A DNA stretch of 64,000 bases, taken from the NCBI GenBank assembly GCA_016748015.1, contig JAAOMT010000168.1, positions 76,190 through 140,189 of the forward strand. The letters are read 5' to 3'. This document shows positions 7,506 to 54,950 of this stretch, piece after piece (the first letter of the stretch is position 1; each line of letters opens with the position of its first letter). The notes beneath the pieces were generated by a model. That model searched no databases, was not told the origin of the DNA, and worked only from the letters and a program-made list of their open reading frames with translations. The translations under genes and the position numbers were made by a program. The DNA comes from Geosiphon pyriformis uo1 (lineage: Eukaryota; Fungi; Glomeromycota).

Positions 7506-7515
7506 AGCAGAAAAA

Positions 7516-13308: not shown

Positions 13309-13495
13309 TTTGGTACTCTCTGTAAGGTATAATCTAACAGAAAACTAATTATTTGTAATATTTGATGCTTTCTGTAAGATATAATTCAACAGAAAACCAG
13401 CATTAACAACAACCATACAGAAAAGTAACAGACCAAGAGAAAACAAAAAAAAATCACTTAGGATTTGTGAAATTTTTATTTTAGTATTATTTTTA

Positions 13496-28700: not shown

Positions 28701-29532
28701 TCAAATATAAAAACTGCAAAAAAAAACTGTTTTCCATAGAAGCATAGATTACACCTAACAAAAACTACTAAACATACACACACTACTACTATAAGTCATA
28801 TTACAGAAAATGCTATAGTTACCTCAAATAGCAAGACAAGTAAAACAATAAATTATGTTTCACTTGTGAAGAACAATTATTCAACAAAAAAATATGGAAT
28901 AACATTTCTGGTTGAGGAGAATGTGTGACATTTTATGTCAATACATGGTCTTTATAAGTGATTTGGTCAGCAGAAAAACATCTTTCAATGCTACATGAAA
29001 CTATGTTTTGTTATGCTTAAACTGTTATTCACATAATAAAAATAAGATCTAAAGTATAACAAGTGCCAAAGTCAAAGGTGTTTTGTCCAGCAAAATTTAA
29101 AAATTAAAAATAACTCACTAAAACCAGTAGAAATTTTTCTTATTTTCAATTTCAACACTTTTTTTAATATTGAAGCCAGTTCAGAAAAATTCTATAAACA
29201 TTACCAGAATTTAGTATTAACCAGACAAAAACAAGAGCAGTATTTAAAACAACTAAACACCCAACTATGTAACTACTGTTTAATACCATGTGACTTTTAG
29301 TATTGTAATAATTGTGACATTATTTACAATCCATCACCATGTATAATCTATTCAATTTCAGAAAAGAAAGAACCAATTAGTAAATACACAAAAAAATCGG
29401 AATTGAAATTCAATCTTAATTCAGACTCTAATGATAACAACAATAATAGTTCTAACTCTGTTCACTATAACAGTAACAACAGTAATTTAAACTCCAATTA
29501 TAACTTCAAACAATATATTGCACTCCCAAATC
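24948..29532 (+). mobile_element. Gypsy family A, 5' half (LTR, PBS, gag, protease, Cys-rich insert)
   Basis: Collinear with 35563-40452; LILNSGSTGSII protease at ~28115; ends just before dUTPase. Confidence 0.92.
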
Positions 29533-31349
29533 TGTTGATAAAACAGGCAATTAAAGCAGCCAACTTTTTTTTAGACTGCAATTGCTTTAATGATTTTAAA
29601 TCATTGTTATCAATAGAATTTTAGCTATTAACTAGCATAAAATTACTCTTATAATTCCTATTATTAATTAGCATATATTAATACTATTTCAAATTATTAC
29701 TTATTAATTAATTAAATTATCAAATAGCACTATTTAATTATTAACCTAATTTGTATTATAGAAATTAAGATGATTAAATTACACAATACTCTGAACTACT
29801 TAACATTTAAAAATTCATTGAAATTTGTAAAAATTTGTTAAAATCATAAATAATTAACCAAAATAGTTAATAGTTTAACAAAATAACTTGTAGTTTGCCA
29901 AAATATATCTTTAGTTTATTGAAATCATAGTAAAGAAGAAAATTCAAGTTTATAAACAAGTACTATAACAAGTTGTATAAAAAAAAAGCTTTTTTTTTCA
30001 AAAAATGTATCTTATTTTCTATTAAATATTTTAATTAGAATCAATAATTCTTTATATATTTTTACAAATTAAAAATAAAAATCAAATATTCAAAAATCCA
30101 AATCTTTAATTATTATATTTAGAACTGCTAAAACCCAATTAACAATTTGAAATTGATTAGCTACCAATTTCAATAAATTTGTTAATAACTCTAGATCTGA
30201 ATACAAAACGTTTTTTTTGACAAAATTCTATTTTTTTTACATTTTTTATTATAATTATTAGAATAGTCTACAAATGAGATTTCTGTAAAAGAGTTAACTT
30301 TCACAGCAAAGTAATTATACAGTTTTGGTAAGTTTCCAGATAAGTAATTTTTGGGAAAGAGTTGATGTTTATTACAACATAACTATACAAAGTAATTGGC
30401 ATGAAATTGGCCATTTCACTTTTACTAAAGGTTTTTGGTCTCATTTCTTGAAGGTTATTAATGCCTAATTGCTGTAATTTCACGTTTTTTTGAAGTACTT
30501 GAACCTTCAATAACTGAATTTATCTTTTTAAATTATCTTTTATAATTTGAACTGCTGGACTTATAAGTAGAATGGCCAATTTTATGTTAGTTACTTTATG
30601 TAGTTACATTGTTATAAATATCAACTCTTTTCCAGAAATTGCTCATCTAGAAGTTCACTAAATGTGTAGTTACTTTGCTGTAAAAATCAACTTTTTTACA
30701 GAAATCTTGTCTGTAGACAACTCTAATGATTATGATAAAAAAAATTAAAAAATTAAAAAAAATTAAAAAAAATTAAAATTTTGTCAAGGGAAATGTTTTC
30801 TATCTAGGCCTGAAGTTATTAACAAATTTATTAAAATTGGTAAATAACAATTTCAAGTATAATAATTTAAAAATTTAAGATTTTTGAATATTTGATTTTT
30901 ATTTAATTTTGTAAAAGTATTTAAGAAATAATTGATTCTAATTAAAATATTTACGATAAAATAAATACATTTTCTTGAAAAAAGAAGCTCTTTTTTATAC
31001 AACTTGTTATAGTACTAGTCTTTGAACTTGCATTTTTTTTTTTACTATAATTTCAGCAAACTAAAGATACATTTCAGTGAATTACAAATTATTTCTACAA
31101 ATTATTGATTATTTCAGCCAATTTCTATCTATTTCGGCGAATTTTTGAATATTAAATAGTTTAAGATATTGTGTAATTTGATCATCTTAATTTTTATAGT
31201 ACAAATCGAATTGTTAATTGAATAATAATATTTAATAATTTGATTAACTAATAAGTGTTAATTGAAATAATAATAATATATACTAATTAATGCTAAGAAT
31301 TAAAAGAGTAATTCCATGTTAATTAATAGTTAAAATTCTACTGGTAACA
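29533..31349 (-). repeat. Putative 3' LTR of family C (~1.8 kb)
   Basis: Begins TGTTACC after the PPT; minus strand ends TTATCAACA at 29533, exactly where the family-A element is interrupted; second LTR not in window. Confidence 0.65.
29605..31349. repeat. Long imperfect inverted repeat, arms ~29605-30424 and ~30562-31349, spacer ~137 bp
   Basis: TGTTATCAATAGAATTTTAGCTATTAA / TTAATAGTTAAAATTCTACTGGTAACA at the ends; AGTACTATAACAAGTTGTATAAAAAA / TTTTTTATACAACTTGTTATAGTACT mid-arm; AAATTGGCCATT / AATGGCCAATTT at the inner ends. Confidence 0.95.
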
Positions 31350-32979
31350 TAATTTTCTCTTCAAGATTGAGTTCTATCAAAATCTAAGCACTATCTGTAA
31401 TATTGAGATAGTGGTCCAAAATAATCGTGGTAATTTGGTCTGAAAATTGTTGAAATTTCAGTTCTGTAAGTTTGCCAATGTATTGTATTTTTATTAGTTA
31501 GAGTATTAAATTTTATAAGATGTTTTCACAAGTATTAAATAAGTTATAAAGTCTAAGTGCTGCTCTGAGTTTATAGTAAATGTTTGTTGGTTCAGCTGCT
31601 GTCTTGAATCATTGTAAATTTGTTTTTGTATTGCTTCAGAAGTGAGATTTGTTGTTGTAAGTTTTAATTTTCATTAATAAAGTGTTCTTTCAATATAAAA
31701 ATAATTATATATAAGAGTATAGTTATTGTTCTGTTTATTAAAAATTAATAAAAGTTTTTGTTGGATTGTGTCATTTGGTAAAATGTCAATAGGAATAATA
31801 AGAAAGTTTTTTTTTAAAGTTTGCTTCAAAAGTTCTGGTAGTTGACTTTCAGAATAACTTCTTGTGTTTGTTTTATAAAAATGATATTTCTGGGAATTAT
31901 TTACTACTGAAACTGCAGTTTCTTTTTGGGTGTAATTAATTTTGTTTTCATTGATCATTATAGATAAGTCAGGAAGTGTTTTTAAAGCTAACATTAAATT
32001 TTGTGATATTTATTAAATGTTTCAGGGAATAAGCATTATAAAATTTGAATAAATTTTGAAATTTGAAAAAGAAAAAAATTATTTTTGGTATAGAAGTTTT
32101 TATATATTTTTTTGTTTGGGTATTTTTTGGTAATTATTTTGCTATTTTTGTTTTTAATGTTTCTGTATTTTAAAAGAAATAACTAATAAAATTAAATATT
32201 CAGATTTGTTATTATTCTATTATAACTATTGGTTCTAAATTTCGAGAAATATTTTTAGGATTAATTAGAAAAGAATATATACCAATTTGTGGAATTAATA
32301 ATTCAATTTTGTTTCTGGAATAATAGTGTTATAGTCGATTTTTTTGTGCAACTTTGGCTAGGATTTTGTTATCAAGTTTTAACTTGTATGATCTATTGCT
32401 TAAGATTTTATGAATATAAAATAGTCTATCTTATTTATGTTCAAATTTTTTACCCTATTGTTTTTTAGTCTTAGTTCTGTGTAAGAAAACTTTGTTTTCA
32501 ACTTTAAATTTATTAATAACTAATAGCAGTTTGTTATTATGCTATTCTTTTTGTTAAGCTTGAGAGTGTTTAATATAAGTTACTGCAATTTATTATTTTT
32601 TTTCCAATATGCTAAAAAGAGTGTAAACTCTTTGTTAAAAAGTTTCTTGGAAGTTTTTTTTTGTAATGAATTGTACTAGATATGTATCTACTGTAAAATT
32701 AATTAGTAATATTGCTATTCTTCTATTGGTAAGATCAAATGATATGTGTTTTATAGTATCTTGTTTTAGTGTTTTATATGCTAATAATACTGATAAAATA
32801 AAGATATTCTATTCTTGTTCAAAATTGGTTGAAACTTTAACTAGTAATTCACATAGTGTTTAGTTGAAACATTCTACAAGTTCATTTATTTGGAAGTAAT
32901 AAGATAATAATAAAAGTTTTTTAATATTGAATTGTTCACAAATTTTTTGCATTAAGTTATTTACAAAGTGTGTTTTTAT

Positions 32980-35134: not shown

Positions 35135-35562
35135 ATTTTTTTTTAATTTTATTGAGTAAGGATTAATTATTATCTAAAAATTAGAAACAAACCAAGTATT
35201 CTAATATTAAATATAGTTCACATATTTTCTATATATAATTAGTTACTTAAACCAGTTTAAACTATATTATATTGATATTTTAAAAAAAAATTTATCCAAA
35301 AAAACATTTTTTAAACAATTTTAAACAATATAACACTATTACCAAACAATTTAATTAGCTATTTAGCTGTTTTTAAGACATTAGTCTTTATAATAACAGA
35401 TTTATGTTCCTAAAATAACATTAGATTAAAAAACATATTATTATCAACAGTAGACAAACTTATATGAAAGCCAGATATATTAATATCTTCATAGCCAAAC
35501 TCAGTTGTTAAAACAACTACTTTCTATTCTAATTTATTAATAGTCTTATTAAAGATACTCAT
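35135..35562 (-). mobile_element. ORF1-only LINE derivative, 3' segment (split from 45721-47580 by the Gypsy insertion)
   Basis: ORF1 C-terminus, stop at 35267-35269, LINE-type 3' UTR (..CCTTACTCAATAAA) and A-tail on the minus strand. Confidence 0.8.
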
Positions 35563-36423
35563 TGTTACTTATAGAAATATAGAAAATATATTAGCATGAT
35601 TATTAAACAATCAGAAATAGGTATAGTAAATGTGGAATTCCAGGATTCTTCTCAGAAATTACAGGATTTCAGGAATTTCAGGATTCCCCGACGAGAAATC
35701 ACAGAATTCCAGAATTCCAGGATTCCTCTCAAAGAAATTGCAGGATTTCTGTCATAAAGAATCGAGGAATTGAGGAATCTCAATTATGTATATATAGCAG
35801 CAAGATTAGAAGCTAAAAAGACAGACCTCTTAGTTTTAAATTTAATTTAAGCAACTCTCTAAATTACAATCATCTAATAAATAACTATTTGTTATCTCAA
35901 ACCCATTTCCACTATCAACACTTTATGTTAATAGTAATTGATACTTAACCACACTAAAACAATAGCTCTTGATTATGGCTATTAATGAAATACTAACTTG
36001 CAAATTGCCTTGGCTTATTTCTTTTCTTTCTTTATTTTATTTTCTTTTCTTTATTTTCTTGCTTTGATTTTATTGTTGTTTACTAACTCTATTGAGGATT
36101 AGCGCACAGAGCACTAATGTCAGGATAAACATGACTGGTAAAAGACCCAGAAATAAGAGTAAAACACTCGATTGAGAATAGCTTACCAGGAGAAATACTG
36201 GCCATCAAGCTGAAAAAAAAATTGATGAAACTGCAGTTTTGGGAAGCTATGAATAAAACTATCACCATTGAATCTCTGTCCATTATACAAAAAACTCAAC
36301 CAAACCCTTCAAATACAAAACCTTTAGATACCAAACCTTCAGATCATCGACAATAAGAATAACCTTAAGCACCAAGTTACAGGTTTGTATTTAATTCAAC
36401 CTCAGAAATTGTTACTTGTAACA
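35563..36423 (+). repeat. 5' LTR
   Basis: TGTTACTTATAG...CTTGTAACA; direct repeat of 44867-45720. Confidence 0.96.
35633..35800 (+). promoter_or_regulatory. LTR U3 array of GGA(A)TT(C/T)CA motifs followed by TATA-like TATATATAG
   Basis: About 10 short motif copies; TATGTATATATAG conserved in all family-A LTRs; function inferred from position. Confidence 0.55.
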
Positions 36424-36442
36424 TTTGATGCTTCCTGTGAGG
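36424..36442 (+). promoter_or_regulatory. Primer-binding site
   Basis: TTTGATGCTTCCTGTGAGG directly after the LTR; variants at 13309, 13361 and 25744 give consensus TGGTGCTYYCTGTGAGG. Confidence 0.85.
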
Positions 36443-36485
36443 TATAATCTTACAGAGAACCAGCACCAACAAACACTATTCAAAA

Positions 36486-39400
36486 GTGGCAGAATCAGAA
36501 AACATAAGAGCAAACCATTTAGGATTCACAAAATCCCTATTTCAATACTATTGTCAACACTTGAGATTAAACTACAATTATATATCTGCCAAATCAGTCT
36601 TTAATTTCTATGTCAATGAAAAAATTTCCTCTTTGTTAGGAACACCAGTGAATACTAAATCAGCCAGAGAAACTTTCTACAGAGAATTAATTCAAAATAC
36701 CAACCTGCCAACAAATCACAATTTTGCCTCCATCATTACTGAGATCAACAAAGAAATTGAATATTACACCCAACAAAGATATCCAATTACTTATGCTAGT
36801 AAAGGCAAAGAAAAACTACAAACACCAGCGGTAACACCCAAAAGGATACAACCACCCATTTGGAAGAAAACAAGAGCTGAATCACCAACTGCTCCATCTT
36901 ATCACTACACACCAGGAAGCGCCATCAATATAACATCAGCAAGTGTGTCCATATCAAATGCAATATTAACAATCAAACAATTCCCATTCCAAAGTAAACA
37001 AAGAAAAACAGATCTACTAGAACCATATGGCAAATATTTTGAAGGATTTAAGTCATAATCACCAACACCATCAGGAATTCAATTACTGCTGCCTCAACTG
37101 GACTTTGGAACCATTACCCTATGGGAACTATCTGAAGAAAAAGAAGAAAAAGAATTAGAAGATCAAGAATTTACTTACCAAAACTTGATCCTTGAAAACC
37201 TGGAATTTGAAACCCCAAACGTTCAAACTCAGTGAAAAAATCCAGAAATTGAAACTCCAAATATTCAAGCACTGCAAAATCAAAACCCCAAAGTAATTAA
37301 TCAATACTTACCTCCAGTTATCATCATTAATCAACCACCAGTTGAACCAATTGGTCAGCCCATCCAAATACTGAACCAACAAACTCAACAACCACCCCCA
37401 GTACCACCTCAACAACAACAACAACTTCTACCACAGCAACAACAACAAATGGCATACGCATCAATCGCAAAGCTCAACAAATTTACCGGCAAAAAGGACG
37501 ACACACAAGTTTGGCTAAATAATGTAGAAAAAGCCATCGCAGCCAACGGATGGAATAATGCCAGAGCCATGCAAGTCATATCTTATTTTCTCAAAAATAC
37601 AGCAGATTCATGGTATCAAAGCCTGATTGACAAACTCCAAGATTTCAATGCCTTCAAATTAGAATTTTTGAGATACTTTAGCAATAACAACAGCATCAAT
37701 AGATTAGCCAACACTTTCATTACAATTAAACAAAGAGAAACTGAAGCAGTTACCACATATCTGGGACACTTCCATAGAAATCTGCAACAAATTCAAGCAA
37801 TTGATGCTAATTATTTTACAGCGCCACAAATTCTCAATCAATTCATCCGTGGTCTGTGCAGTAGCATTCTGTAACACTTACACCCATTGCATCCAGCCAC
37901 TTTCCAGGACACAGTCACATATGCCAGAGATTTCAAATCTGCCAAATTAGAAGCCAATCATGCTCACGCTGTGAACCTAGTGATGAATGGATCATCTGAA
38001 TTGGATTTTAAATTGAAACAAGTCAGTAATTCAATTAATCAGAAGTTAAAAGAATACTTAGCTGACAATTGCGCAATTTATCAACCACCACAACAATACA
38101 ATAATCCAAAAAATGCGAATTGTTTCCAAAATCAGTCACATCCATCATTATTATCAGCAGTACCTAATCAGCCATGACAGCCAGAAACACGTGTTTGCCA
38201 CAACTGTGGTAAACAAGAACACATAAGAGCAGACTGCAGATTTTATAGCAACAATTCACAATCAGGAAATCAATATTGAAACCTCAATCACAGATTTCAA
38301 ACTCCAAATTGTTATCCAAATCAAAATCAAACTACTTACCTGCCAATAATGCAGCCACCAATCTATCAGCTGCCAATATATCAACCTCAAATTTATCAAC
38401 TGCAGCCACCAATAATCTATTAGCCACAACCCCAAATAATTTATCAATCCCAATCAATTCAGACACTGCCCCAAAATTCAGTTAATATGACATCAGGCCA
38501 CCTCAAACCTAGAATTACACAAAACTGGAGATTGGCAATGATTGTCCACCAACTGATCTCCAGTTCTTTTAACTCACCATCAGAATTGCGTTCTTGGAAT
38601 TCGGGTACTGGTGCCACCCAAAACCTGAATTCTCAGAACTATTTAAGTCTCTTAGTTATCCCAGAAGATGCCACCAACACCAATTTGGGATCTAACCAAC
38701 AATTAACACTCACCAGCAATATTCCACCAGCCACCGTTACAGAAGACAAGTTACTCGCAGCCATATCCCCATTTGAAATTGAGGAACCATCAGAAGTTTC
38801 TTTGTTCAACAGAGTCACTATTGAGGAAAAACCCATCACAGCGATATACACCGATGCCAAAATTAATGGCCATTTCATCAAGCTCATTCTTGATAGTGCG
38901 TCAGCAGGCAGCATTATCACATGACAACTTATGGACCAATTAGGTCGCCGAGTTGATCATGTTGCCAGTGCCAAAATTATAACAGCTGATGGAGCAACCA
39001 AAACTCCTATTGGTGAGATTAACAATCTACCCATTGAAATTAATAGCATCACTGTACCAATCAAGATATTAGTAATGGAAGCAACCCAGTACCAAGCTCT
39101 TGTTGGCAACAACTGGTTGTTTAAAACCAATGCAATACTCGACTGAAACACACAGGAACTCCAACTTAGCCAAAATGGCCAATACATGTGAGTACTGGCC
39201 ATGTGTGGCCATTTTAAATCTAACAACATCACATTATCAATGCCGCTTATTGATTTTGAAAAGGAAAAACCAAAGCTTACTTGGGAGATGTATCAAGTAT
39301 CATGGGCCAATGTCGAGCACAACAAGCTACCGCCAATTCTAGACTGGGAAGAAAGGAACAATGTAAAGAGAAAAGAAACAGAAACAGAAGAACATACCTG

Positions 39401-42400
39401 TGAAACCACTATTAATATCTGGAATAATGACGATGAAAGTAAAGCAATGCCAACCAGCTGAAAAGAAAAAGGGAAAGGAAAGGAGAAAGAAGAAGACTTA
39501 TCTGGAAAAGCTAACGAAGCCATAGAAAAAATAACCAGTGACTAGGAAAGAGAATATTTACATAAACCAGTAAAGAAGTCACCTTACATTCTCTTAAAAT
39601 GTCAGGACTGTAAGAAAAAACTCTCTTCTATGGAAGCATGGATCATGCCAGACGAAGACTACTGGACACGAACCCACTACTACTGCAAACCATGCCATAA
39701 AGAATGCTATAGTTATCCAAAATGACAAGGCAAGTGAGACAACAAACCATGTCTCGCTTGTGGCGAACAGTTACTCGATGAAGAAATGTGGAACGACATT
39801 CCTGGTTGAGGAGGAACATGCGACGCTTCATGCTAATACATGATCTTTATCAGCGATTGAATAAGTTACAGCATGCCAATAACAGCTGCTTGGCACCAAG
39901 CAATATCTCGCTTAGAAGGTTACTCACATGATGAAGACAAAATCTGGTGAATGGCCAATGCCAAAGTAGAGGACGCTTCGCCCAGTGAGATTCTAGAGAT
40001 CAAGAACAACTTTCCAGAACCAACAAACATTGTTTTGGTTCTCAACCCAGATGCCTTTCTCAACTTAGAAAACAGTCCAGAAGAATTCCATGAACACTAT
40101 CAGAACTTAGCACTCATCAGAAAAAAGCAGAAACAAAGATTAAAAGAAATAAACACTTGACTATGTGACTATTGTTTGATTCCATGTGACTTCTAATATT
40201 GTAATAAGTGTGATCTTATTTACAATCCACCACCACGCATGATCTACAAGATTTCCAAAAAGGAAGAACCAATCAGCAGCTGCACATCAGAATCAGAATT
40301 GATTTTCAATTCCAATTTAAACTCTGACAAGAATGACAACGAAAACACCGGTTTCAGCTCTATTCAAAATGACATTAACAATGACAACAATTCCAACTCA
40401 GATCCAAACTTTGACCCAAAATATGAACAATATATTGCACTGCCAGACCTCTCCAAAGAACAGAAGTTGAAATGATATAGTGATAATAATGAAGATATCA
40501 TGCCAGAACATGCACACGATACTGATGCTGGATTTGATCTGAGATATCCAGGAAAAGATGCCATTAAATTGGAGCCAAACATGTGAGTATGCATTGATCT
40601 GAGAATAGCTCTAGAGATCCCAGCAACAACCATGGTTCTGTTAGCATCTAGAAGTAGTTTAGCAAAAAAAGTGATTAATATTAGAGGGTAAATAGTGGAT
40701 GCAGGATATATAGAAAATATTAGTGCCATGTTACAAAATGACTCAGAAAAAGCTTACACTATTGAGCCAAATGAAAAGATAGCACAGGCCATATTCCTGC
40801 CACTAGTCAAAGTAGCTAGCTTAGTGTCAGTGGGAACAAGAGAGAAATTAGGGATAACAGCAAGAGGGATACAAGAATTTAGATCAACAGGTAGAATAGA
40901 TATACCAGTTAATATGACAGAGGAAGAAATTGTTGGCCAAGGAAAAATTATCTCAACCGGTCAAACTATTTCCATTTCACTATATAGCCAGTACATGCTA
41001 GCAATAAAAAGGAAGGAAAAAGAACAGAATCAGATTTTTGAAGCAGAACCAACTCTTTGCAAATCAGGAGAGATTGGACTCATCAATCTCCATATACCAG
41101 CCAAAGATTACAGCCACATCAAAATTTTTATCTACAACAACACAGGAAATGTCATAGTGATACCAGCCAGAACCACTATGGGATACTTAAACACTGAAAT
41201 AGAAGATCAACCACCAAACTCCATTCCAAACTTTCCACAGCTTTGTGGATATGTCGACATCATATCACAAACAATCTATGAACAAGACAAATGTTATTTG
41301 CTCCAACCAGAACAATTAGAACAAATGAACATGGGAAATCTAGACCTATTACAACGTATACAGCTCAAGATGTTACTCAACAATTACAATAATATCTTTG
41401 TCAGCAAAAACAAATTTGGCAGAACTGACATCATCCAACATCAAATCAAGACTGGAGATGCAATGCCAATCAAACAGCAAGCATACAGAGTACCACCAGC
41501 CAGCCATGAAATTATTCATCAAGAAATCAACTGAATGCTTGACAATGAGTTAATTCAGCCATCAATGAGCCCATGGTTGTCACCAGTAGTACTCGTCTGT
41601 AAGAAGAATGGAAAGATCCGATTTTGTGTAGACTACAGGAAACTAAATAGTGTAACTCATGGAGACAGTTATCCAACTCTATAGATACAAGAACTATTCG
41701 ATGCTTTTGGTGGAAACAAATGGTTCTTAATGTTAGACTTAAATAATGGTTACTAACAAGTAACCATGGATCCAACCAACAAAGAAAAGATGGCATTTAC
41801 CACCAGAGAAGAGAATTTTGAATTTAAAGTAATGCCATTTGGCTTAACCAATGCACCAGCCACTTTCCAAAGACTAATAGAAATTGTTTATATGGGTTTA
41901 TTGTGGAAATCAGTAGTTGTATACTTGGATGACACTAATGTATTTTCAAAAACATTTGATGATCATCTTCATCATCTTCAACAAGTGTTCGAAAGACTAA
42001 GAAAAGCAGGACTAAAGTTAAATACAACAAAGTGTTTCTTTAACAAGACAGAACTAAAATTCTTGGAACACATAGTCAGCAAAGACAGCATCAAAACAGA
42101 TCCAGAGAAAATAGAGATAGTAAAGAACTTTCTAGTGCTGACAAATATGACAGAACTGAAATTATTCTTGGGATTTGCCAGCTATTATTGATGTTTTATC
42201 AAGAACTTTTCCAAGATAACACAGCCACTCAACCAACTGCAAACCAAGAATACAAAATATGAATAGACAGAAAGTCAACAAGAAGCTTTTGATATTCTGA
42301 GAAGAAAGCTCATTCAAGCTCCAGTACTGATCTATCCAGATCACAGCAAACCATTCATCATTACTACTGATGCATCTGGCCAAGCATTGGGAGCAGTATT

Positions 42401-42725
42401 ATCTTAGAGAGGACCAGATAGCAGGGAACATCCAGTAGCATATGCCAACAGAGATTTAACACCAGCCGAAAAGAATTATGAAACACTGGAACAAGAACAC
42501 TTAGCAATATACTGGGCAGTCATGAAATAGAAAAAATACTTGAGCCAAAAGTTTGAAGTATACACAGATCACAAAGGATTAACATCACTTCAAAAACAAA
42601 AATTTGGAGATGGAAGACAGTTAAGATGGAAAATGGCACTCATACCATATAATTATACTATACATTATAAAAAGGGAAAAGACAATGGAAATACTAATGG
42701 TTTGTCACAAATGAGACAAATCTAG
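36486..42725 (+). pseudogene. gag-protease-dUTPase-RT-RNase H polyprotein, one reading frame, internal stops
   Basis: ORF-track pieces 36486, 37449, 37887, 38487, 38931, 39201, 39951, 40239, 40695, 41766 and 42540 are all in the same frame; capsid (VWLNNVEKAIAANGW), CCHC CHNCGKQEHIRADC 38196-38237, LILDSAS, FCVDYRKLN, YLDD, TDASG, YTDH. Confidence 0.93.
40500..40895 (+). pseudogene. dUTPase domain within the Gypsy polyprotein
   Basis: All five trimeric dUTPase motifs: DAGFDL, ASRSSLA, IVDAGY, KIAQAIF, RGIQEFRSTG. Confidence 0.92.
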
Positions 42726-42786
42726 GAACATTTCAACCCAAAATATAACAAAACCAGAACAATACCAACAAAAAATATAACAAAAG

Positions 42787-44169
42787 ATGAACATACAAAA
42801 ATATCAATAACTGCAACATTATATAAACACTTAACAGTTCAAGAAGAATTTATCTCAAACAGAATGAAAGAGTATCAAACAACAATCAAAATATTTTATC
42901 ACTTACCAAAATATACTTTATCAAAAAAATAGAAGAGAGCTAGAACAACCAACCAGAGTAATTACAGAGCCAAAAAAAGAGACAATATTATTTAACATGC
43001 ACTCAAATCCAACAACAGGACACTTTCACAAAGAAGCAACCATGGAAAGAACCAAAAAAAAATACTATTGGCCATCAATGTATCCAGATATCATCCAATA
43101 TGTTCAAAATTGTGATGCTTGTCAGTGAAGAGGAGGTACAAAACCCAGTGAACCATTAAGACCAATCAAAGTGGGACAACTATTTAACCATATTGAAATT
43201 GATTTAGTTGGACCATTAATAATTACCAGAGGAAGAAACAGATACATAGCAGTAGCCATGGACTATCTCACTAAATGGCCAGAGACAAAAGCAATTCAAA
43301 GAGCGGATGCAGAATCCATTGCCAAATTCATTCATCAAGATTTAATTTGTCGACACGGATGTCCAAAGGAATTATTATCAGACCAAGAAACTCATTTTGT
43401 AAACAAAACATTAACAGAATTGAGCTAAAGATTCGGAATTAAGAGATCACTATCATTATCATACCATCCACAAACCAACAGATTAGTTGAAAGATTTAAC
43501 AGAACATTATGTGAAACAATAGCTAAGCTCAGTTAAGAAAACCAAAATGATTGGGACGTGTTAATATCAGCAGTACTATTTGCTTATCGAACAATGAAGC
43601 AAGACACTACACAAGCAATACTATTTGAATTAATATACAGTAGAACAGCAATATTACCAGTGGAGATAGAGGTCAACACATATCCAACTGAACCAATAAC
43701 AGAAAAGAATTTCTAAGAAACATTATTAAAAAGAACATATAACTTAATGGAAATATTGGAAAACAAATGAAAAAAAGCAGCTGATAACATACAAAAGTCA
43801 CAAGAGAAACAGAAAAAAAGACATAATAATCAACTATCAAACAAACCAGTTGAATTCAAGATTGGAGACAAAGTACTCTTACATCATACCAAAGCGGAAA
43901 AACAATAGAGTGGAAAATTTGACTCCAAATAGAATGGACCATTTCACATAGAAAAAATTCTAGGGAATAGAGCTTACAAATTAAGACTGGACAACAAAAT
44001 CTTAACCAAAGCAGCACATAGAGATCGACTGAAACCATACCACAACACCATACTACCATCCACCAGTAATATTCCACAATTAGGAGTACAGAGAATACTA
44101 GTCCAATCAGATCAAATTCCACGAGATCTGGAACCAATTATTATTATTAACAACAACACATCAAATTGA
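42787..44169 (+). pseudogene. Integrase (HHCC, DDE core, GPF motif), separate ORF
   Basis: ATG 42787; HSNPTTGHF, CDACQ, IDLVGPL, SDQETHF, LVERFNRTL, GPFHI; ends LEPIIIINNNTSN*; no chromodomain visible. Confidence 0.92.
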
Positions 44170-44193
44170 TCCATCAAAAAAATATATAAAGAC

Positions 44194-44853
44194 ATGGTAA
44201 ATATGACAGGAAATATCAGAAAAATAGAAATTACAGACAACATTCACTCACTAGTACAACAACTTTTTTAATTGATCCAACACCAGGAAATAGAGATTAT
44301 AATCAATTAACAAACCATTCGATATCAAGATACTAGAAAGACATTGCAATCTAGAACACAGAAGAAAACTGAAAATACTGTGGACAAAATCATTGTGAAA
44401 GTAAAATTAGCAATAAGAGAGTTGACAAAAGAGTCACTATATCAAGAATTGACTAAAAAAACTTGGAATTAGTAGATACAACAATTTTCATGAAACTATT
44501 GTTATTTTTACTTGGGACAACATGTAAATATCCAGAATCTATATATAGATAAAACAAAGTGATTATTTGACAAAAAAATACTACAACAATTAGAACATTT
44601 TGTGAGAAAGAATAACTTATCCACACAGACCTGAGCTATATACCAAATATACACAACATTTCAGGATAGACCAGAAATATTACTCAACAAAGCAATAAAT
44701 ATGGTTATCAGTAATCAATTGGGAAAGATTACCAATGCTCAATTTGAAGAATTACAGACCCAAATAACACAAGTAATTTTCAAAAACAAAATCCAGAAAA
44801 TACTTCAAGAGGGGGAATTATATGAGTTGGATTTCAACAGAGCTCAATATTAA
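44194..44853 (+). pseudogene. ORF3 of unknown function (~219 codons) between integrase and PPT
   Basis: ATG 44194 and TAA 44851-44853 in frame; internal stops consistent with single transitions; homologous segments in three other elements. Confidence 0.75.
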
Positions 44854-44866
44854 AAGGAGAGAATAA
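44852..44866 (+). promoter_or_regulatory. Polypurine tract
   Basis: AAAAGGAGAGAATAA immediately before the 3' LTR. Confidence 0.88.
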
Positions 44867-45720
44867 TGTTACTCATAGAAATATAGGAAATATATTAGCA
44901 TGATTATTAGTCAATCAAAAGTAGGCATAGTAAATGTGGAATTCCAGGATTCCTCTTAGGAATTGCAGGATTCCAGGAATTTCAGAATTCCCCAACAAAG
45001 AATCACAGGATTCCAAAATTTCAGAATTCCAGGAATTCCAGGATTCCTGTCATGAAGAATTGAGGAATTGAGGAATTTTAATTATGTATATATAGCAGCA
45101 GGATTAGAAGCTGAAAAGACAGACCTCTTAGTTTTAGATTTAATCTAAGCAACTCTCCAAATTACAATCATCTAATAAATAACTATTTGTTATCTCAAAC
45201 CCATTTCCACTATCAATACTTTATGTTGATAGTAATTGATACTTAACCACACTAGAACAATAGCTTTTGATCCAGCTATTGACGGAATACTAACTTGCAA
45301 ATTGTCTTGGCTTATTTCTTTTCTTTCTTTATTTTATTTTATTTTCTTTATTTTCTTGCTTTGATTTTATTGTTGTTTACTAACTCTATTGAGGATTAAT
45401 GTGCAGCACACTGACATCAGAATAAACGTGACTAGTAAAAGACCCAGAAATAAGAGTAAAACACTCAATTGAAGATAGCTTACCATGAGAAATACTAACC
45501 ATCAAGCTGAGAAAGAAATTGACAAAACTGTAGTTTCAGAAAGCTACGGATAAAACTATTACCATTGAATCTCTGTCCATTATACAAAGAACTCAACCAA
45601 ACCCTTCAGATACAAAATTTTTATATACCAAACCTTCAGATCATCAACAATAAGAATAGCTTTGAGCACCAAATTATGAGTTTGTATTTAATTCAACATC
45701 AGAAATTGTCATCTGTAACA
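44867..45720 (+). repeat. 3' LTR
   Basis: TGTTACTCATAG...TCTGTAACA. Confidence 0.96.
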
Positions 45721-47580
45721 TTATATGTACTAAAATCTTATTAATCTTAAGGCTAAAAACACTACTTAAAACCAAATACTTATTAATAAATTATTTAAGC
45801 ATAGTAATCATAAAACCAACTGACATAATAATAGACTCAATTAAAATAGAAAGCTTGACCAAATTAGATTCCAGAAAAGCCAACTGAAAAAAAACCACAA
45901 AATTATTAGTTATTATATTAGCAGAAAAAGCTAAACCAACCAAAGAACAAAAAGCTAAAAAGATACAAAAACAGTAGCTTTGATATAAAACTTGTTGTTA
46001 ACAACACAAGAAATAAAAGTCTTGAAAATTTTAAAAAAGAGAGATAAAAACACTTTATAATTTAAGTTAAATAATCTAAATTTTAATACTAAAAACAGCA
46101 CTAATTTTCAGAAATCTTTTATTATATATGATACTTTCTTAGTATACTAATTTTAATAACTATGATATCTAAATTAATTTGAGATTCAAACATAATTAAA
46201 GCAAACCAGAAACAATGGTTAAAATCAAGAAAATAAAAAATAAAACATATCTGATTATTAATCTGAAAAATCATATTATTAATTTCAAAAGCAGTATAAT
46301 TAAAGAAACAATTAATCAACTTGGCCTTAAATCTATCATAAAATATAATAGTTTTATTTTAATTTATTAAGAAGAAGATTCTAACACTATTTTTACTTAC
46401 CAAAACTGACCAATAATTCAAAGTAAATACAATAGAGTTCAGTTTATTAAAATAAATAATCACATATTGTCAAATTCTAACAGATTTCAATATAATATAA
46501 ACAACCTTATTAAACATACTAAGAGCTATTATGATATTAGCAGTAAATACACCCAAAGATATATTATACAGTACAATAGTAACAGAAAGAGAACTACTCT
46601 TAAAAACCACCAAAAACTTGGTAATTTTAAGAGTAATTAAATAAACAAAGCTCATAAGCTCAACCAGAAAAGCAGCTTTTAAAGACTTCTAAAAAGCAAA
46701 CTTCATACAAAAAAGCTTTACATTGTTTTTTTACACCAACTTTACATCCAAAAATCCATGTACAAACTGAAAAACAGTCTTAATATAAGCTAATTTAATC
46801 TTAAAAGTAGTATTAAACACCAAAAAAAAAGTCTATTTACTTAGTAAATCTTTAACAACTAATAATAATTTCTTAAACACTATTAGTAGCAGCACCAAAA
46901 ACCAGCAGAAGAAATGATTTAGTTTTCATTTGGTTAATTTAGTTTTTAAAAACAGATGACTTTATAGAAAATAGTTGCTTTACTTTTATAATTGATAAAA
47001 ATCTGTTAAAAGACTTTATATTTAACAATACAGCTAATAATAAATCTTGATTTATTTTAAATAACATATTAGATAATACAATAGAAATTTTATCTAAGAT
47101 CTTATCTAAAACCACAAAAGAGTTTGGTGTAATAATAACAAAGACAAGTGACTGTTTCCATTTTTTTGAAACTTTGGTTTTTTTGATCATTATTTTTAAA
47201 GAAGCAGTACTAAAAGCACTAGGTGTAAAAACTATAATAAGAAAATTTAGCTTATTAATTAGTCTGTTATTAAAAACTTTTGGGTTTTTAGAAGGAGTAA
47301 AAGCAATTTTAGAACTATTTCAAATGTGTTTCTTTAAAAAAATTTTGACTAGTAAAAAATCAGTTAAAGATACAAAGATATTTTAGTGACTACTAAAAAC
47401 AGTTTTTTATTATTATTAACTAAAAAAAAAGCTTTTAAGATGTTTTACTTAGTTGTTTTTACAACAAAAAGAACTTTTTTAGTTAAAACTTTGTGAAATA
47501 TTAAAAAAAAGTATCAGTTACAGCTTTTTTACTCTTTGTTTTAATTGTGATTATAAAATTAAAAAGACAAAGAGATGTTT
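45721..47580 (-). mobile_element. ORF1-only LINE derivative, 5' segment
   Basis: Minus-strand ORFs 46939-47190, 46470-46655 and 46122-46319 resemble LINE ORF1 (e.g. TAFEINNMIFQINNQICFI vs TAYDLSGLLESYNEKTCFI); LINE-like 5' end CATCTCTTTGTCTTTTTAATT..TAATCACAAT; frame rejoins 35558 after removing the Gypsy. Confidence 0.8.
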
Positions 47581-48174
47581 TTTTTAATATAATATTATTA
47601 CTATTTATAAAAAAAATAAAAATTAAATTTTTTAATTAATATATAATATAAATTAGTTAATTATATATATTAAAAATAGTAAAATAACTTAATATTAAAA
47701 CTTTAAAAATATTAAAATTATTAATAATAATTCAAAAAATATATAAAAATAATTAAAAATATTAAAATATTTAGCAAATAAAACAGATTTTTTTGTTAAA
47801 ATAATTACTTTTTAACTAAATAATTATTAATAAAATACAAAAAACCATCAAATTTTGTTAAATTTTTTTTTAAATCTTAAATAAACTATTAATATTAAAG
47901 AAACAAACTTATTTTTTATTAAAAGTAAAATTTAAAAATAATAAAAATAGTAATAGTGTTTATTAAAAAAAAAAATAATTAAAAAAGTTTATTTTTATTA
48001 AAAGTTAAATTAAAAAATATTTTTAAGATAAAAATAATAATATAAAAAATCTTTCTTTTGTTAATCCTCTGACCATAATAAGAGCATAGATAACTTTGGA
48101 GAAGTCATTTTTCATTTTTTTTTTTCCCTCAATCTCTATTAGGTATTTTTTCCATTATATCCCTGTTTGTTGTA

Positions 48175-50114
48175 ATGAACCTGATGGGCACTTCTGCTAA
48201 TGACTCTGGTTTAGTTTCAGCCAGTTTGGAAACCTGTCAAAGTGTGAAAAAAAAACATGTAGATATGATCTACTCTAAAGGTACATCCTATAAAAAGCCA
48301 AAAAAGTCTATTGTCAATGATATGGTTAACTCATCAGCTAAACTTTTGAGCATAGAAAATATTGGTTGCACTGGTGTCAAGCCAGTAGTGTCTTAGAAAA
48401 GTGAGGTTGGCAGTGTTACTAACAATGTAAGTAATCTCTCAGATGTTAAGAATATGGCAAACATAATGGCCAAAGAAATTAGTTATGTAAAATCAAATGA
48501 AGACAATAATATAGACAAGACTACATCAAGAAAAACTTGCACTTAGATGTACGTGCTGGGCAACTTACTAAAGCAACTTTTTTTTGAATGTATGAGTAAT
48601 GACAAAGTTGTGCTGAAGCTTCCTCTTTGTGTAAATAATAGGTCCAATCAGTTGCCACTGCTCGAATTATGTGTTCTGGGAATACAAAGTTTTAATTTGA
48701 CAAAATCTTTTGTGCTTGATATCAAGCTTTCTGTAGTACCAGACAAATCAGTTAGTGATAAATTAATTTCAATAAAAAAAATTTTTTATTGAGTGAATGG
48801 TTTTGAAAAAGTCTCAACTCTCTCAAAATTTTCAGAGATCATCAGATCTTCTTTTACATCTGAGTTAAGTCTGAATAAGGCTAAAAAATTGGCAATCTGT
48901 GAGAAAATTTTGGTAAACAATGATGTTAGAAAGCTGAGTATTTGTTCAAATCAGGAAGTGATTGTCAAAAAAATTCCAGTCAATCTTCTCAAATCAGCTA
49001 TAGAATCAGTTTTTTCTAAATTTGGTAAGGTAGTTTCAATCAAGATACAACTGATTGGTCTTTGGCAAAAGCTTTAGTAGAGTTTGAGTCATCTGAAGTT
49101 GCTAGCTTGGTTGCCAAATGGTCAGTTTTTATGGGAAAAGATTCTGTACATGTGGCTTTGACTGTGAATGATAAAGAATCATAGGTAATAAGGAATCAGC
49201 ATCGAGCTTTGCTCTACACTCTTCTTATTGGTATTACTGCTTATGATTTGTCAGGTTTGTTGGAATCATATAATGAGAAGACTTGTTTTATTGGTCACAA
49301 TTCAAGCTCATATGTTTGTAATAGATATGCAGTGATTTGTTTTGAGAATAAGACATCTAAATTGGCTGTTATTGGTTCTGTTCCAGTCTTTAAGAGTGTG
49401 AATTTGCATTGGGCTGGTCTTTTTTTGGCCTGTTGTGTCAAGTGTAAACAATTTGGTTATATCTTTAATGTGTGTTTGATTGGTGAGAATTCTGGAATTT
49501 GTGTTAAGTGGGTGGTAACTGATCAGAATTGGGTTTGTTTGACCAGTATTTATAAAAAGAAACAGGCTCTTGTTATCTGTCCAGTCTTTTTTGATAGTAA
49601 AACTTGGGCTCAAGTTGTTGGTGGTTTTTTATTTCATGTGGCTCTCTTACTTCTTTTTGGTGCTAGTCTGTTTTCTGGTCCCAAGACCTCTTCATTTGCC
49701 TCTGTTTTCTCTAGTGATTTTGACTTGTATGACCATTTGGCATCTTTGAAATGCTCTTTGGAGCTTCTGGCAGACCAGATTTCTGGTATTTTAAAAAAAA
49801 TGAGTTTCACAGAATTGGTACCCCTAGTGATCACTTTTAAAGTCTCTTTTCCAGTTATTCTTGTGTCTGTAGTCTCTAGTTTGAAGTCGGATATGGCTTT
49901 GAATGGTGCATTGGTGTTTTCTGCTCTTCCTCTTCCAGTTGTCAATGATACAGTTACTGATTTAAGTTTAAGTAATACTAAGGTTTTGACCACCAAAATT
50001 GGTGGTCTGAAATCCAAGATGGTAGCTTTGAAGGTGTCTGTTAAATCTGTTTTAAAGAAATGAGACCATTTGTGCTTGGGTTTGGATTCATTGGCTTTTT
50101 TTTCTTCTCAATAA
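48175..50114 (+). pseudogene. LINE ORF1 (gag-like, CCHC knuckle relic)
   Basis: ORF-track 48175-50063; IESVFSKFGKVVSIKI RRM-like segment; CVKCKQFGYIFNVC. Confidence 0.88.
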
Positions 50115-53100
50115 TTGATTTTGTCTGAAAAATTGTAACATATAATATAAAAGATATGAAAAATCCTGCAAAACAAGAGAATATTGTGCAATAGCATAAA
50201 GACATAAACAATCTGATCTCAATTTTTATGAAAACAAAGTTAAAAAAAAATGTATGTTTATGGATTGTCAACAAATTTGATGGCATTTGAATGTTTACTT
50301 CTGGTTTGGATTCTGGATATCTGGGTGCTAGAGTTGTGGTCATTATGAGTTTTTCTTTGGCAAAACATGTGTACAAAGTTTTCAAAGTGCCTGGCTGGCT
50401 TTTATTCATAAAATTACTTTTCAAAAATAAACTTTCTGTGTTAAATTTGGGGCTTTATGCTAGTGTTTTTTTGGCAGTTTGGTTCTATTAGGCTGATGAT
50501 ATCAATTTTTTTATTGCAAAGACTGTTAATGAATCTTTTTTTATCATTCTTGGTGGTAATTTTAATGAAGATGGTTCTCATAAATATGCAAGTTTTAAAA
50601 AGTGCCTCAATTTGGAACTGGTTAATTCTTTGGTTAGAAGTCTGATTGTAAAAATGCCCACTTGGGTGAATTCTAGAGGTGTTATAAAAACGATTGATTA
50701 CATGTTTGTTTCTTCTAATCTGGTCAATGCAATAGTATATTGCAATGTTTTGGAAATCGGTAAGCATTTTGACATGGATTACCAAGCTGTTTTTCTGTCT
50801 GTGGGTTTGGATAAAATTTTAAATACGCAATTGAACTCTTTTTGCAAACAAGTAAACAAAAACAGGTGGAAGTTTGATTTCAAAAATGCTGATAAAAATA
50901 AATGGACTGATTTTAAGAATGCCATACTAGCCAATACAACTATGTTCCTAAACGAGTTTGTTGTCTCTACAAGGTCTTCAGATTTGGATGCAATGTGGTA
51001 TGTCATTCACAGGATAATGATTCTTTTGGCTAGTGGGGTTTTTAAGAAAAAATGATTTAAGGACTTTGATAGTGTTTTTACCAAAGAATTTTCAAGATTT
51101 CATAAGTTGAAACTTTTGGTTTCTAAAATTGTTAAGGCCTCTCATAAGGAGAGTATTGTGAATTTTGTTTTCTTTATGAAATGCTGGGATTCTTTGAACA
51201 AGGTCAAGGCTTTGGTCATTTAAGATCTAGTGAATTTTAGTATAGACTCTAATCATGTTTGTTTTGCTCTCTTTGGTACCAGAAAGTCTTATCATGCATC
51301 CAAGTTTGCTAAGTCTTTGAAAGCTAAGAAGATGAATATTAGATCTGCCATTGATAAGAGGATGGAAAGCTTTGAAGTAAATAAAGGTCATACAATAAAG
51401 AGTGTGTTAGAGTGTTTGTTTTGTAAAGTGGTGCTTGACCATTTGGTTGTTAATAATAAACTAATTCTGGGACCTGAGTTGGTTAAGTCTAAGGTAGATG
51501 TAATTATGAAAGGTTGGACTAGGAAGCATCAAGTGGTTGATGACATCACTGATAAATAGTATCATTAATATTAGCTTTTGGAGTATGTTTTTAATGAAGC
51601 TTTTTCTGGAATAATGTGTTTGATCAGTTTTAATGAATTGTTTGGTGTGGTTTTCAATCTGCCAGAAGGCAAAGCTGCCAGTTTGTTGGATATCTCAAAT
51701 GAGCTTTGGAAACATTATAATAAGTCAGTACTGGATATGCTTTTAGTGCTTTTAAACTCTTATTTGTCTAGTGAGTTGGTGCCAGGTTTGTGGAAAGAGA
51801 CTTGGGTCTTAATAATTCCCAAATTATATGAATAAGAGGGTGTTCTGACAAATACTCATTCCATTACTTTAATTGAAACAGCCCAAAAGATTCTTTCCAA
51901 AATTCTGTCTGATAGGATTTCTTCAGCATGCAGTGCTTATAGTGTTCTTCATAAAAACAATTTTTCAGTTTTAAAAAGTACAATGACTTAGTCTTTTATT
52001 TTTGTGATTGGTTTAGTGGTTAAAAATGCTTTGGAAAAGAACTAAGAGCTCTGGCTAGTTTTGCAAGACATGCAAAAAACATATGATTTGGTTAGCTGAG
52101 AGCATCTTAAGAAAAGTTTGATTAGGATTAAAATGTACAGCAAATTCATTTATTTTTTTGATAGTATTCACAAGGATTATATTAACTGAGTTATAACAGA
52201 TTTTGATTTAACAGATGGATATTTTGTTCATGATAATTTAGATCAGGAAGAAGTTTTTTCTTCTCTTCTGTAATACATATTTTATAATTCTCTGCTGTGT
52301 GAAGTCAAGCATCAGAAAAGTGTGTGTGGGTATAGATTGAACTCTCATTTTGTTTTCAGAAGTGATTATATTGAATCCCAAACAGGACTTTCTTTTTTTT
52401 TGCTGCTGGTGCTTTCATTAATGATATAATTTGGGTTGGTAGCAGTCAGATTGCTACTCAACATATTCTTAATATTGCCAGTAAATTTTTTCAGATCAAT
52501 GATATCTCAATTAAATAATGATAAAACAGTGGCTATTTCTATTAATTGCAGAGTTAGCAGTTCTTCTCTTTTAATTAGTGATTCACCTATCTCTATCACC
52601 AAAAAGAGAGAATCTTATCAGTATCTGGGTATTTTTCTTTCAACTGAGGGTCTTATGAAGCCTAGTTTGGCCAGGGCATATTTGGACATTCATTTTTTCA
52701 TCAATCTGGTTCTAAAAAAAGCTGTCTCAAATAAACAGTTTTTATATTTGGTGTTAATAGTTCTCCAATCCATAGTTAACTATAGAATACAGTTTAGCTT
52801 TGTTTCAATTAGTGTGTACAACAGATGAAATGCTCTGATTCATAAAGACTTAAAGCTTAAATCTGGTCTGCCATCTGATTTTTTCAGTGATACAATTCAC
52901 CACTCTTCATTTTATGGTCTAAAGTCTTTTTCAAAAGTTCAGTCTGAGTGTAAGGTTGCTTTTTTTATTGGTTTTGTAAACTCTGGTGAAATTTTGGGTT
53001 ACTGGTTTTCTCACAAATCTCATAACTTGCAAGTTCAGTATTGGCATCTTGTTTATCTATTAAGTTCTTCTGTTCATATTTATGTCAGTGCTTCTAATAA

Positions 53101-54794
53101 CTTTTTGGTGGGCATGATCTGTATTCTTCTTGATTGCAATTTGTTTTTGAATGGCTTTTTAGCCAATTTTTTCTGATTTTGCAGTAGAGTGTTCATGTCT
53201 ACTGTTCTAGATAAGTCAAAATTTTTTAAGTTTTTCTCTTTTCTCCGAAGGTATGACATTGCTTTTGTGGATCAACTTCATGATTGTTATGGTACTGTCT
53301 TTAATTGGTATACTTTTAAGCAGTGAAAAAAACTGGATCCCCATGGTTTTATTCCTAAATGGTTTAAGCTTTCTGTTGTGTTTTTTGATGATGTGATTTC
53401 TTCTCCTACTGGTTCTTCAGCTTTGAGTGGTGTTGGTTTTTTAAACATACTTAGGTCTAGTGATTATGCTTGTGTTTGTAATCATCTTTCTTGGGTTGGC
53501 TCTAGTTGTTTATCTGTATACATAGATGGATCTCTGAAGAAGTTGGGCACAGCTGGCTATAGAGCTGGTGCTACTGTTTTCTTCAAGAACATTGATATGA
53601 GTTTGGGCATTGGTATATTGGGTTTGATGTCATTCACTCTGGTAGAACTGCAGGCTATTGTATTGGCTCTTAAGTGTGTCTTTTATCTAGTTCTGTTCAC
53701 TTGTTTTTAGATAGTCAATTTGCTTTGGATACTTGTAAATTAGAATTTAGTCTTGTGTGTCCTAATTTCTGCAATCAGTGTTAGATTGAGCATCAGCATA
53801 TTGTTAATATCATTTGTAGTAAGAATTTGAGTATCAATTGGCACAAGATTAAGGGTCACTTTGGTGTTTCTGGAAATGAGCACACTAATGTAATAACTAG
53901 TGCTGCTTCTTTTTCTGGTTGGCGTTTTTCTTTTTGCTTGGATAAACGTTTTATAGTGGCTGATGATGTTGTTGTTTCAAGCAATTTTAGACACTTTGTT
54001 TGTGATATTTATTGCTCCATTTGTTATGCATGTTGGGAGATTGGTTTTAGTTCTAAGTTTTTAACAAGTAATCTGCTTTCTGAGATTGATTGGCCCTGCT
54101 CTTTACTGGTGTGGCATCCTGATTTGCATATGGCTGTCAGTTTTATCAGCAGGCCCTCAGCTAATACATATACTTCATGAAAGCTTTGTATTGTTGGCTG
54201 CCTATTGCTGTTCAGAAATGCTTTTATAACAGATATTATGTTAGTGTGTTGTATTTATATTGTGACAATGTGGAGATTTCAAATCATATATTTTTTTATA
54301 AGGTTAACAATTCTGTTTATCATCAGATATTAGACTTTTATATGGTTTCTTGGAAGACTCTTTCTGGTTTTTCTTATTTATTTTCAAGTGTGTTACAACT
54401 GTTGTCATCTTGTGTTTCTGGTTCCTCAGTCTTTATGGCTCTTTATAAGAATTTTGTTTTTAATAATTGGTTTTGTAAAACTGTTTCCATATTTTATGAT
54501 CACAAGGTTGCTGGCTTAAAAGTTGTTAAGTTTGTGTGCTTTCTTGGTTTCATCTTTAAAAATAATATTTGGCTGGTTCGTGCTAAACATTGTGTCTATA
54601 TAGAGAAGGCCAAATTGATTTTATTAGATGGTTCAGCTTTAGTGTTAGTTTCTGGTTTGGCTTTGGGTTTTTCTGCTGGTGTAGTTAAGTTGCTTGGCAT
54701 TACTAAGGCTATGGGCATTTGTTTTGGTTTTTGCAAATTTTGTTTATTTTTTTCTGGTATAGGTAATTTAGTTTTGGTTTATATAGCTGCATAG
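50111..54794 (+). pseudogene. LINE ORF2 (APE-RT-RNase H)
   Basis: GGNFNE, TIDY, LQDMQKTYD, YIDGS, WHKIKGHFGVSGNEH, VWHPDLHM. Confidence 0.92.
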
Positions 54795-54950
54795 TGGTGT
54801 TCTGATTGGTTTGAGTGGCTAGTTACTTGTAGAAAATACATAATTCATGCCTAGTATATAATTATTTCTTTGATGTATAGCATTAGGCTGTGTTTGGGCC
54901 TTACTCGTTAAATGTTAATATAAAAAAAATAATAATAATAATATAAAAAA

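Follow-up and report, generated by a model that had tools for sequence, protein, structure and literature searches.

The question raised by this locus is whether a retrotransposon that is negative on the standard repeat-induced point mutation (RIP) indices, yet belongs to a family whose substitutions are mostly C:G>T:A and largely outside CpG dinucleotides, records a mutational defence against transposons, and of which kind. The element, a full-length Ty3/Gypsy long terminal repeat (LTR) retrotransposon made defective by stop codons, occupies positions 35563-45720 of a 64,000-nucleotide stretch of DNA (hereafter the window; contig JAAOMT010000168.1, positions 76,190 to 140,189 of the forward strand, assembly GCA_016748015.1) of Geosiphon pyriformis uo1, an early-branching relative of the arbuscular mycorrhizal fungi (AMF). 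An earlier note on this DNA had proposed RIP-like hypermutation of the element, caused either by a repeat-targeted cytosine mutagenesis with relaxed context or by extreme methylation-driven deamination. The present analysis demonstrates a directional excess of C:G>T:A changes that arose after insertion, on both strands and beyond CpG. The signature is real and strong, and it is best read as a variant of methylation-linked transposon mutagenesis that is not shown to be RIP.

RIP-like defence has been held absent from AMF, largely on the basis of dinucleotide or k-mer indices. If repeats are the target of the process described here, the Glomeromycotina possess an overlooked mutational transposon defence, which would bear on the AT-richness of their genomes, on the survival of their expanded gene families and on the overestimation of LTR ages. 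Were the process RID-dependent and premeiotic, it would moreover testify, at the genome level, to sexual reproduction in fungi that have long been considered asexual.

Divergence of the LTR pair

The two LTRs of a retrotransposon are identical at insertion and their later differences are free of coding selection, so the differences found here arose after insertion. The alignment of the pair contains 91 differences in 854 columns, namely 84 transitions (92% of all differences) and 7 transversions, with 21 of the transitions at CpG-derived dinucleotides and 63 elsewhere. The earlier description of mainly transitional and frequently non-CpG differences was borne out by this count, and the four differences quoted as examples are genuine (positions 35570, 35583, 35622 and 35661). 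No CpG remains intact in both LTRs (0 CG/CG, 9 CG/decayed and 6 CA/TG), which corresponds to a CpG loss of about 0.79 per LTR from approximately 22 ancestral CpGs; the observed/expected ratio of CpG was 0.24 for the element and 0.12 for the window, in agreement with the scarcity noted across the latter. The Kimura two-parameter distance of the pair was 0.119, but the distance was 0.008 when transversions alone were counted, so that LTR-based dating is distorted, as had been suspected, and ages would be overestimated. A/G differences (40/128) exceeded C/T differences (22/145) beyond the effect of context.

The polarity of the changes was followed in the part of the 5' LTR at 35900-36423, in a scan that leaves out 36005-36074 and scores listed places only, contigs being clipped near clustered differences. 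At 22 places at least 45% of the family depth differed from the 5' LTR; in 17 of them this copy has A/T where the family has G/C, 4 had the reverse polarity (including 1 at CpG and 1 next to a badly aligned spot) and 1 was a transversion. Over the whole element, transitions made up 2,191 of the 2,561 variable places at a 10% share cut-off in the contigs of run X1. The LTR relics elsewhere in the window are 65-77% identical, which is too decayed for polarising single sites.

Substitution spectrum of the element family

All 120 homologues of the central region among the matches listed (120 of 446) were G. pyriformis gene models, and the same was true for all 37 homologues of a neighbouring open reading frame resembling those of long interspersed nuclear elements (LINE-like), which supports the glomeromycotan origin that the earlier note had presumed. 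The Gypsy family spectrum was derived from 119 of the 120 proteins (one did not pass the per-copy cut) and from those amino-acid changes that a single base change can produce, mainly in a Cys-rich insert at 39590-40215. Codon sites with fewer than 15 sequences (10 for the LINE-like family), with no 50-60% majority or with a window codon unlike the majority were omitted, and contexts were read from the codons of the window copy as proxies for the ancestral ones.

Per site per copy, C>T changes occurred in the Gypsy family at a rate of 0.119 outside CpG and 0.258 at CpG, against 0.0087 for T>C and 0.0025 for each transversion; under a looser majority rule the corresponding values were 0.125 (95% confidence interval 0.114-0.137), 0.280, 0.016 and 0.003. 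The non-CpG C>T rate was 8-14 times that of T>C and 40-50 times that of each transversion type. Together with the 63 of 84 LTR transitions lying outside ancestral CpG, a non-CpG rate of about 0.12 means that the excess is not confined to ancestral CpG; such confinement is what the earlier note had named as refuting its proposal. In a codon-free version of the analysis, 20/20 amino-acid pairs were biased in the C>T direction with a ratio of 6.1; the identical pipeline applied to reverse transcriptase (RT) homologues of other organisms gave only 1.3 (15/20 pairs), and most of the signal is therefore no artefact of the pipeline. Of the 58 single-step cases in which the window copy itself departs from the family majority, 44 are C>T. 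In the LINE-like family (37 proteins), the rates were 0.086 for C>T, 0.040 for T>C and 0.007 for transversions, and the four LINE-like copies of the window gave p(C>T) 0.32 and q(T>C) 0.07, the latter being overestimated by the star model used.

Sequence context, strand and clustering

The context spectrum that the earlier note had called for was obtained for the LTR pair and for the family; all contexts were affected, with CpG being the most mutated one in the Gypsy family and with a preference for TpC. Outside CpG, the influence of the 3' base was nearly flat (A 0.137, C 0.118, T 0.117), and CpA had no preference over CpC and CpT in the Gypsy family. The 5' base did matter (T 0.177, C 0.127, G 0.089, A 0.076): TpC was mutated about twice as often as other contexts on both strands, with CpC second, and TpC was also enriched in the LTR pair (40/116 vs 22/157, p 1e-4). 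Cytosines flanked by purines on both sides (ApCpA 0.07, GpCpA 0.09) were still mutated at about 30 times the rate of each transversion. TpCpG was the top trinucleotide class, at 0.285 (7 sites) compared with 0.198 (3 sites) for GpCpG. The RIP indices were negative, with a composite value of -0.77, a TpA/ApT ratio of 0.72 and a CpA observed/expected ratio of 1.35, that is, CpA is enriched.

Among the 119 copies, in which per-copy rates ranged from 0.04 to 0.21, none was untouched or saturated. The strand split per copy was binomial (p 0.88), same-strand neighbours were as frequent as after permutation (0.512 vs 0.511) and tandem CC>TT doublets were as numerous as expected (24 vs 23.7). RIP in the strict sense is not supported by these results, given the unpreferred CpA, the index of -0.77 and the lack of per-copy strand bias or same-strand runs.

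Premature stop codons

The earlier observation that the stops of the element fit C>T or G>A changes is uninformative as written, because every stop codon is one transition away from some sense codon. Polarisation by homologues gave it content. A homologous residue was available for 23 of the 29 stops in the gag-pol frame, the other 6 and the 7 stops of the integrase lying outside homologue coverage and hence outside the tally; 20 of these 23 require C>T or G>A changes alone, 2 can be read either way and for 1 a transversion is required. Only 190 of the 1,008 possible stop-gains in the gag-pol frame are of the C>T type, and the observed excess has a binomial p of 3e-12. Of the 20 explained stops, 9 lie at CpG and 11 outside it.

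Structure of the element and of the surrounding window

The boundaries of the element were confirmed by an empty site, since position 35558 is joined to 45721 in two contigs of run X1 and the 10,162 bases skipped are exactly the element plus 4 bases. These 4 bp are the target-site duplication, with TCAT on the left (35559-35562) and TTAT on the right (45721-45724); the single C/T difference between the copies, correctly read in the earlier note, lies in a TpCpA context. All features are on the forward strand. The 5' LTR (35563-36423, 861 bp) and the 3' LTR (44867-45720, 854 bp) both have TG...CA ends and are 88.6% identical; a purine run at 44852-44863, just 5' of the 3' LTR, is by its position the likely polypurine tract.

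The gag-pol reading frame (36441-42722, 2,094 codons, 29 premature stops) encodes, according to Pfam, a Gag capsid domain (PF03732, 37575-37856, E 1.5e-10), an aspartyl protease (PF13975, 38853-39119, E 2.7e-8), a dUTPase (PF00692, 40497-40877, E 2.9e-16), an RT (PF00078, 41601-42065, E 2.1e-30) and an RNase H (PF17917, 42339-42650, E 4.5e-31). The integrase, with an H2C2 zinc domain, an rve core and a weak SH3 match, is located at 43000-44166 (389 codons, 7 stops). The polyprotein of 6.2 kb described earlier does keep a single frame as far as gag-pol is concerned, but the integrase is in another one. The domain order gag, protease, RT, RNase H, integrase, the two direct TG...CA LTRs and the target-site duplication assign the element to Ty3/Gypsy, and with 29 stops in gag-pol and 7 in the integrase it is complete but dead. 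The dUTPase between protease and RT is present in most family gene models among the matches listed. The Cys-rich insert, with repeated CxxC pairs kept across the family and without a Pfam match, contains an HxE...PCxxC look-alike of short spacing, surrounded by the repeated CxxC pairs, which may be either a deaminase or a zinc finger motif. The region between the integrase and the 3' LTR (44170-44860) holds what may be left of another reading frame, in which nothing was recognised.

Summed contig depth over the element was mostly 1e4-4e5, compared with about 65-95 per listed contig (run X1), which points to a very large element family. This is consistent with the reported LTR expansion in G. 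pyriformis, where LTR elements cover 41.2% of the genome (PMC11952901).

The remainder of the window appears to consist of decayed repeats (the four LINE-like copies and further Gypsy relics), and no host genes were found within its 64 kb. The LINE-like copies (3-5500, 7500-12630, 48000-55000 and 55000-61000) have about 65-72% mutual identity, an RNase H match in the first, and the same C>T drift as the Gypsy element. Older and AT-richer relics of related Gypsy elements or LTRs lie at 12560-17700, 19800-21600, 22200-22900, 24948-29550 and 32329-32977. A long inverted repeat (32951-33632/34813-35492, about 71% identity) in DNA of 15-16% GC possibly represents the termini of a decayed DNA transposon, and a shorter one is located at 30012-30964.

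Proposed mechanism

The reading that we favour, with a probability of about 0.5, is a gradual mutagenesis coupled to CG and non-CG methylation of repeats and resembling that of Dim2 in Zymoseptoria. The second option of the earlier note, methylation-driven deamination, fits best among those considered, provided that methylation extends beyond CpG. Gypsy copies would be silenced and methylated, with an enzyme of the DNMT1 or DNMT5 type marking CpG, which would lead to near-saturated CpG loss, and a putative enzyme of the DIM-2 type marking non-CG sites with a 5'-pyrimidine preference. Deamination, spontaneous or enzyme-assisted, would then outpace T:G repair over many nuclear divisions; methylated cytosines are likely to deaminate gradually, a few at a time. 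As the outcome, nonsense mutations would inactivate copies and old repeats would become DNA of 15-18% GC. C>T changes outside CpG, on both strands and of gradual accrual, as found here, are those expected of a DIM-2-type process.

The components of such a process have been described in other fungi. AMF transposons are CpG-methylated (PMC8647823; bioRxiv 10.64898/2026.01.14.699541), and the AMF clade is reported to encode DNMT1, DNMT5, DIM-2 and RID (PMC8298701). In R. irregularis, 32.5-49.5% of all cytosines were methylated according to liquid chromatography-mass spectrometry (PMC8298701); this proportion exceeds, in our estimation, the CpG supply of an AT-rich genome. Phycomyces combines CHH methylation (H being A, C or T) of transposable elements (TEs) with a DIM-2 homologue (PMC11258239, PMC13297926), and Dim2 drives mitotic C>T changes in Zymoseptoria repeats (PMC8016269).

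Several points weigh against the methylation-coupled reading. The CpA preference of Zymoseptoria is absent here and, to our knowledge, passive deamination does not account for a 5'-pyrimidine preference. The mutation rates cover repeats alone (two TE families); they were, moreover, obtained from gene-model proteins, which favours less damaged and mutually related copies, and their confidence intervals were bootstrapped over sites only. The LINE-like family has the same direction of change but a weaker one, with a C>T:T>C ratio of only about 2. Sense-strand G>A exceeded C>T in the Gypsy family (0.145 vs 0.103), which context explains in part, and this excess was not seen in the LINE-like family (0.078 vs 0.101). 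The per-copy rates were mildly overdispersed (chi2 183, 118 degrees of freedom), and mutation pairs within 100-400 bases were in slight excess (1,586 vs 1,522); both would fit age differences and, equally, weak episodes. The methylation and methyltransferase evidence comes from other fungi, with Geosiphon unmentioned in the accessible text of PMC8298701.

The last of these points concerns other elements. Nothing was detected by LTR motif in the viral contigs or metagenome contigs scanned, and searching metagenomes by way of the RT turned up 79 loci that belong to unrelated Gypsy elements, with at most about 69% DNA identity (stretches of at least 300 bases). Among 40 such loci of at least 4 kb, 9 had long direct repeats; two pairs were identical, two had 1 transition, and the remaining five had transition:transversion counts of 25:0, 11:1, 4:2, 8:6 and 12:9. 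The 25:0 pair (metagenome contig L056, 7594-7919/12760-13085), with transitions in all contexts, demonstrates that an all-context transition bias is not unique to the Geosiphon element. L056 has no CpG depletion (observed/expected 0.82).

More tentatively, and with odds well short of even, the Geosiphon pattern may be the work of an enzyme-driven, repeat-targeted cytosine mutator with a signature of its own (TpCpN, with CpG strongest, on both strands) to which the standard RIP indices are blind; this would be either RIP or a counterpart of it acting in mitosis, in a fungus outside Dikarya.

Alternative explanations

The rival that survives best, although we consider it unlikely, is a genome-wide bias: the DNA of the whole lineage would mutate C:G>T:A fastest, for example, owing to weak uracil or T:G repair, and unselected transposons would record this bias. 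The average of 27% GC in Glomeromycota (PMC11134847) suits this explanation, as do a direction common to both TE classes without a sharp target motif and rates that were measured in repeats only. Nevertheless, at the family rates GC would settle at an equilibrium of 8-13%, yet the four-fold sites of the element still have 29.6% GC and about 22 CpGs were present in its LTR at the outset; the progenitor must therefore have escaped the bias or come recently, or the bias itself must be recent. In ordinary eukaryotic neutral DNA, C>T is only a few-fold above each transversion, and the 40-50-fold excess of non-CpG C>T found here is well above such ratios. Indirectly, the repeat-poor Paraglomeraceae, with 37% GC and 6.8-8.1% TEs compared with 41.2% LTR elements in G. 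pyriformis (PMC11134847, PMC11952901), also speak against it.

True RIP outside Dikarya, in which a RID-type enzyme with premeiotic duplication sensing and relaxed context would act lightly over many sexual cycles, is more doubtful. The strong directional C:G>T:A excess, including the 92% share of transitions among the LTR differences, is a feature of RIP, and the 5'-T preference recalls TpCpG in Pucciniomycotina (PMC3318451). A narrow dinucleotide target, recognisable by depleted CpA and increased TpA, was not found, CpA being unpreferred (observed/expected 1.35, composite index -0.77), nor was episodic, strand-coordinated mutation of single copies; many light rounds would wipe out strand bias and could mask that signal, but same-strand runs were likewise missing, none of the 119 copies was either untouched or saturated, and the family still attained its very high copy number (summed depth mostly 1e4-4e5). 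Published accounts disagree over RID, which the AMF clade is reported to possess (PMC8298701) but which a 2026 review restricts to Ascomycota (PMC13297926). Gigaspora margarita is reported to lack RIP signatures (cited in PMC8647823), and a kingdom-wide k-mer screen, which does not name Geosiphon in its main text, confines RIP to ascomycetes (PMC12543289).

Least probable of the three, and quite improbable in our view, is a TpC-preferring cytidine deaminase of the APOBEC type, or ultraviolet (UV) damage at dipyrimidines in a surface-living fungus, acting atop CpG decay. It would account for TpC being mutated about twice as often as other contexts on both strands, with CpC second, and for G>A exceeding C>T on the sense strand of the Gypsy family. 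However, cytosines without a pyrimidine neighbour (ApCpA 0.07, GpCpA 0.09) are not spared but mutate about 30 times as often as each transversion, there is neither a CC>TT doublet excess nor strand-coordinated clustering, and no such deaminase was found for these fungi in the literature searched. Editing during reverse transcription is not expected to give LTR-LTR differences on both strands, and here they do lie on both.

Four simpler candidates were rejected outright: CpG-only decay by the 63/84 LTR transitions and 11/20 polarised stops that are non-CpG, classical CpA-directed RIP by the flat 3' context and the index of -0.77, an exclusive origin in editing during reverse transcription by the both-strand LTR-LTR differences, and an exclusive origin in UV damage by the lack of a doublet excess and the mutation of purine-flanked cytosines.

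Comparison with known systems

Literature searches aimed at C>T erosion across all contexts brought no account of it to light for Glomeromycotina, in a coverage that did not extend to the genome paper of G. pyriformis or to one on the CG deficiency of lower fungi. An index-based claim of RIP exists for Entomophthorales (PMC10515909), and TpCpG and CpG mutation signatures are known in basidiomycetes (PMC3318451, PMC4352252).

As a retrotransposon, the element resembles other Ty3/Gypsy elements in its gag-protease-RT-RNase H-integrase order, its TG...CA LTRs and its short target duplication, and differs from them by the dUTPase and Cys-rich insert between protease and RT. With RIP of Neurospora and other Pezizomycotina it shares the C:G>T:A excess, the nonsense mutations of W, Q and R codons and the AT-rich relics, but here there is no CpA/TpA signature (-0.77) and no per-copy strand bias or runs. 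The TpCpG hypermutation of Pucciniomycotina (PMC3318451) is similar in its 5'-T preference, TpCpG being the highest class here too; there, however, partial TpCpG matches are not elevated, whereas here all non-CpG contexts are high and the excess is not limited to TpCpG (0.12 per site for C>T outside CpG). The loss of CpG from methylated TEs of the Dnmt1/Masc2 type (PMC4352252) accounts for the near-saturated CpG loss and the CpA/TpG enrichment, but not for the 63/84 LTR transitions or the non-CpG rate of 0.12. In Zymoseptoria tritici, finally, more than 98% of the changes attributed to Dim2 are at CpA and CpG is spared (PMC8016269), which counts against the parallel that we draw, as in Geosiphon CpG is highest, CpA, CpC and CpT are about equal, a 5'-pyrimidine preference exists and the enzyme is putative. 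At the same time, the two systems are alike in the dominance of C>T in repeats, in a gradual accrual that is plausible without sex and in the link to non-CG methylation, which in Geosiphon is putative.

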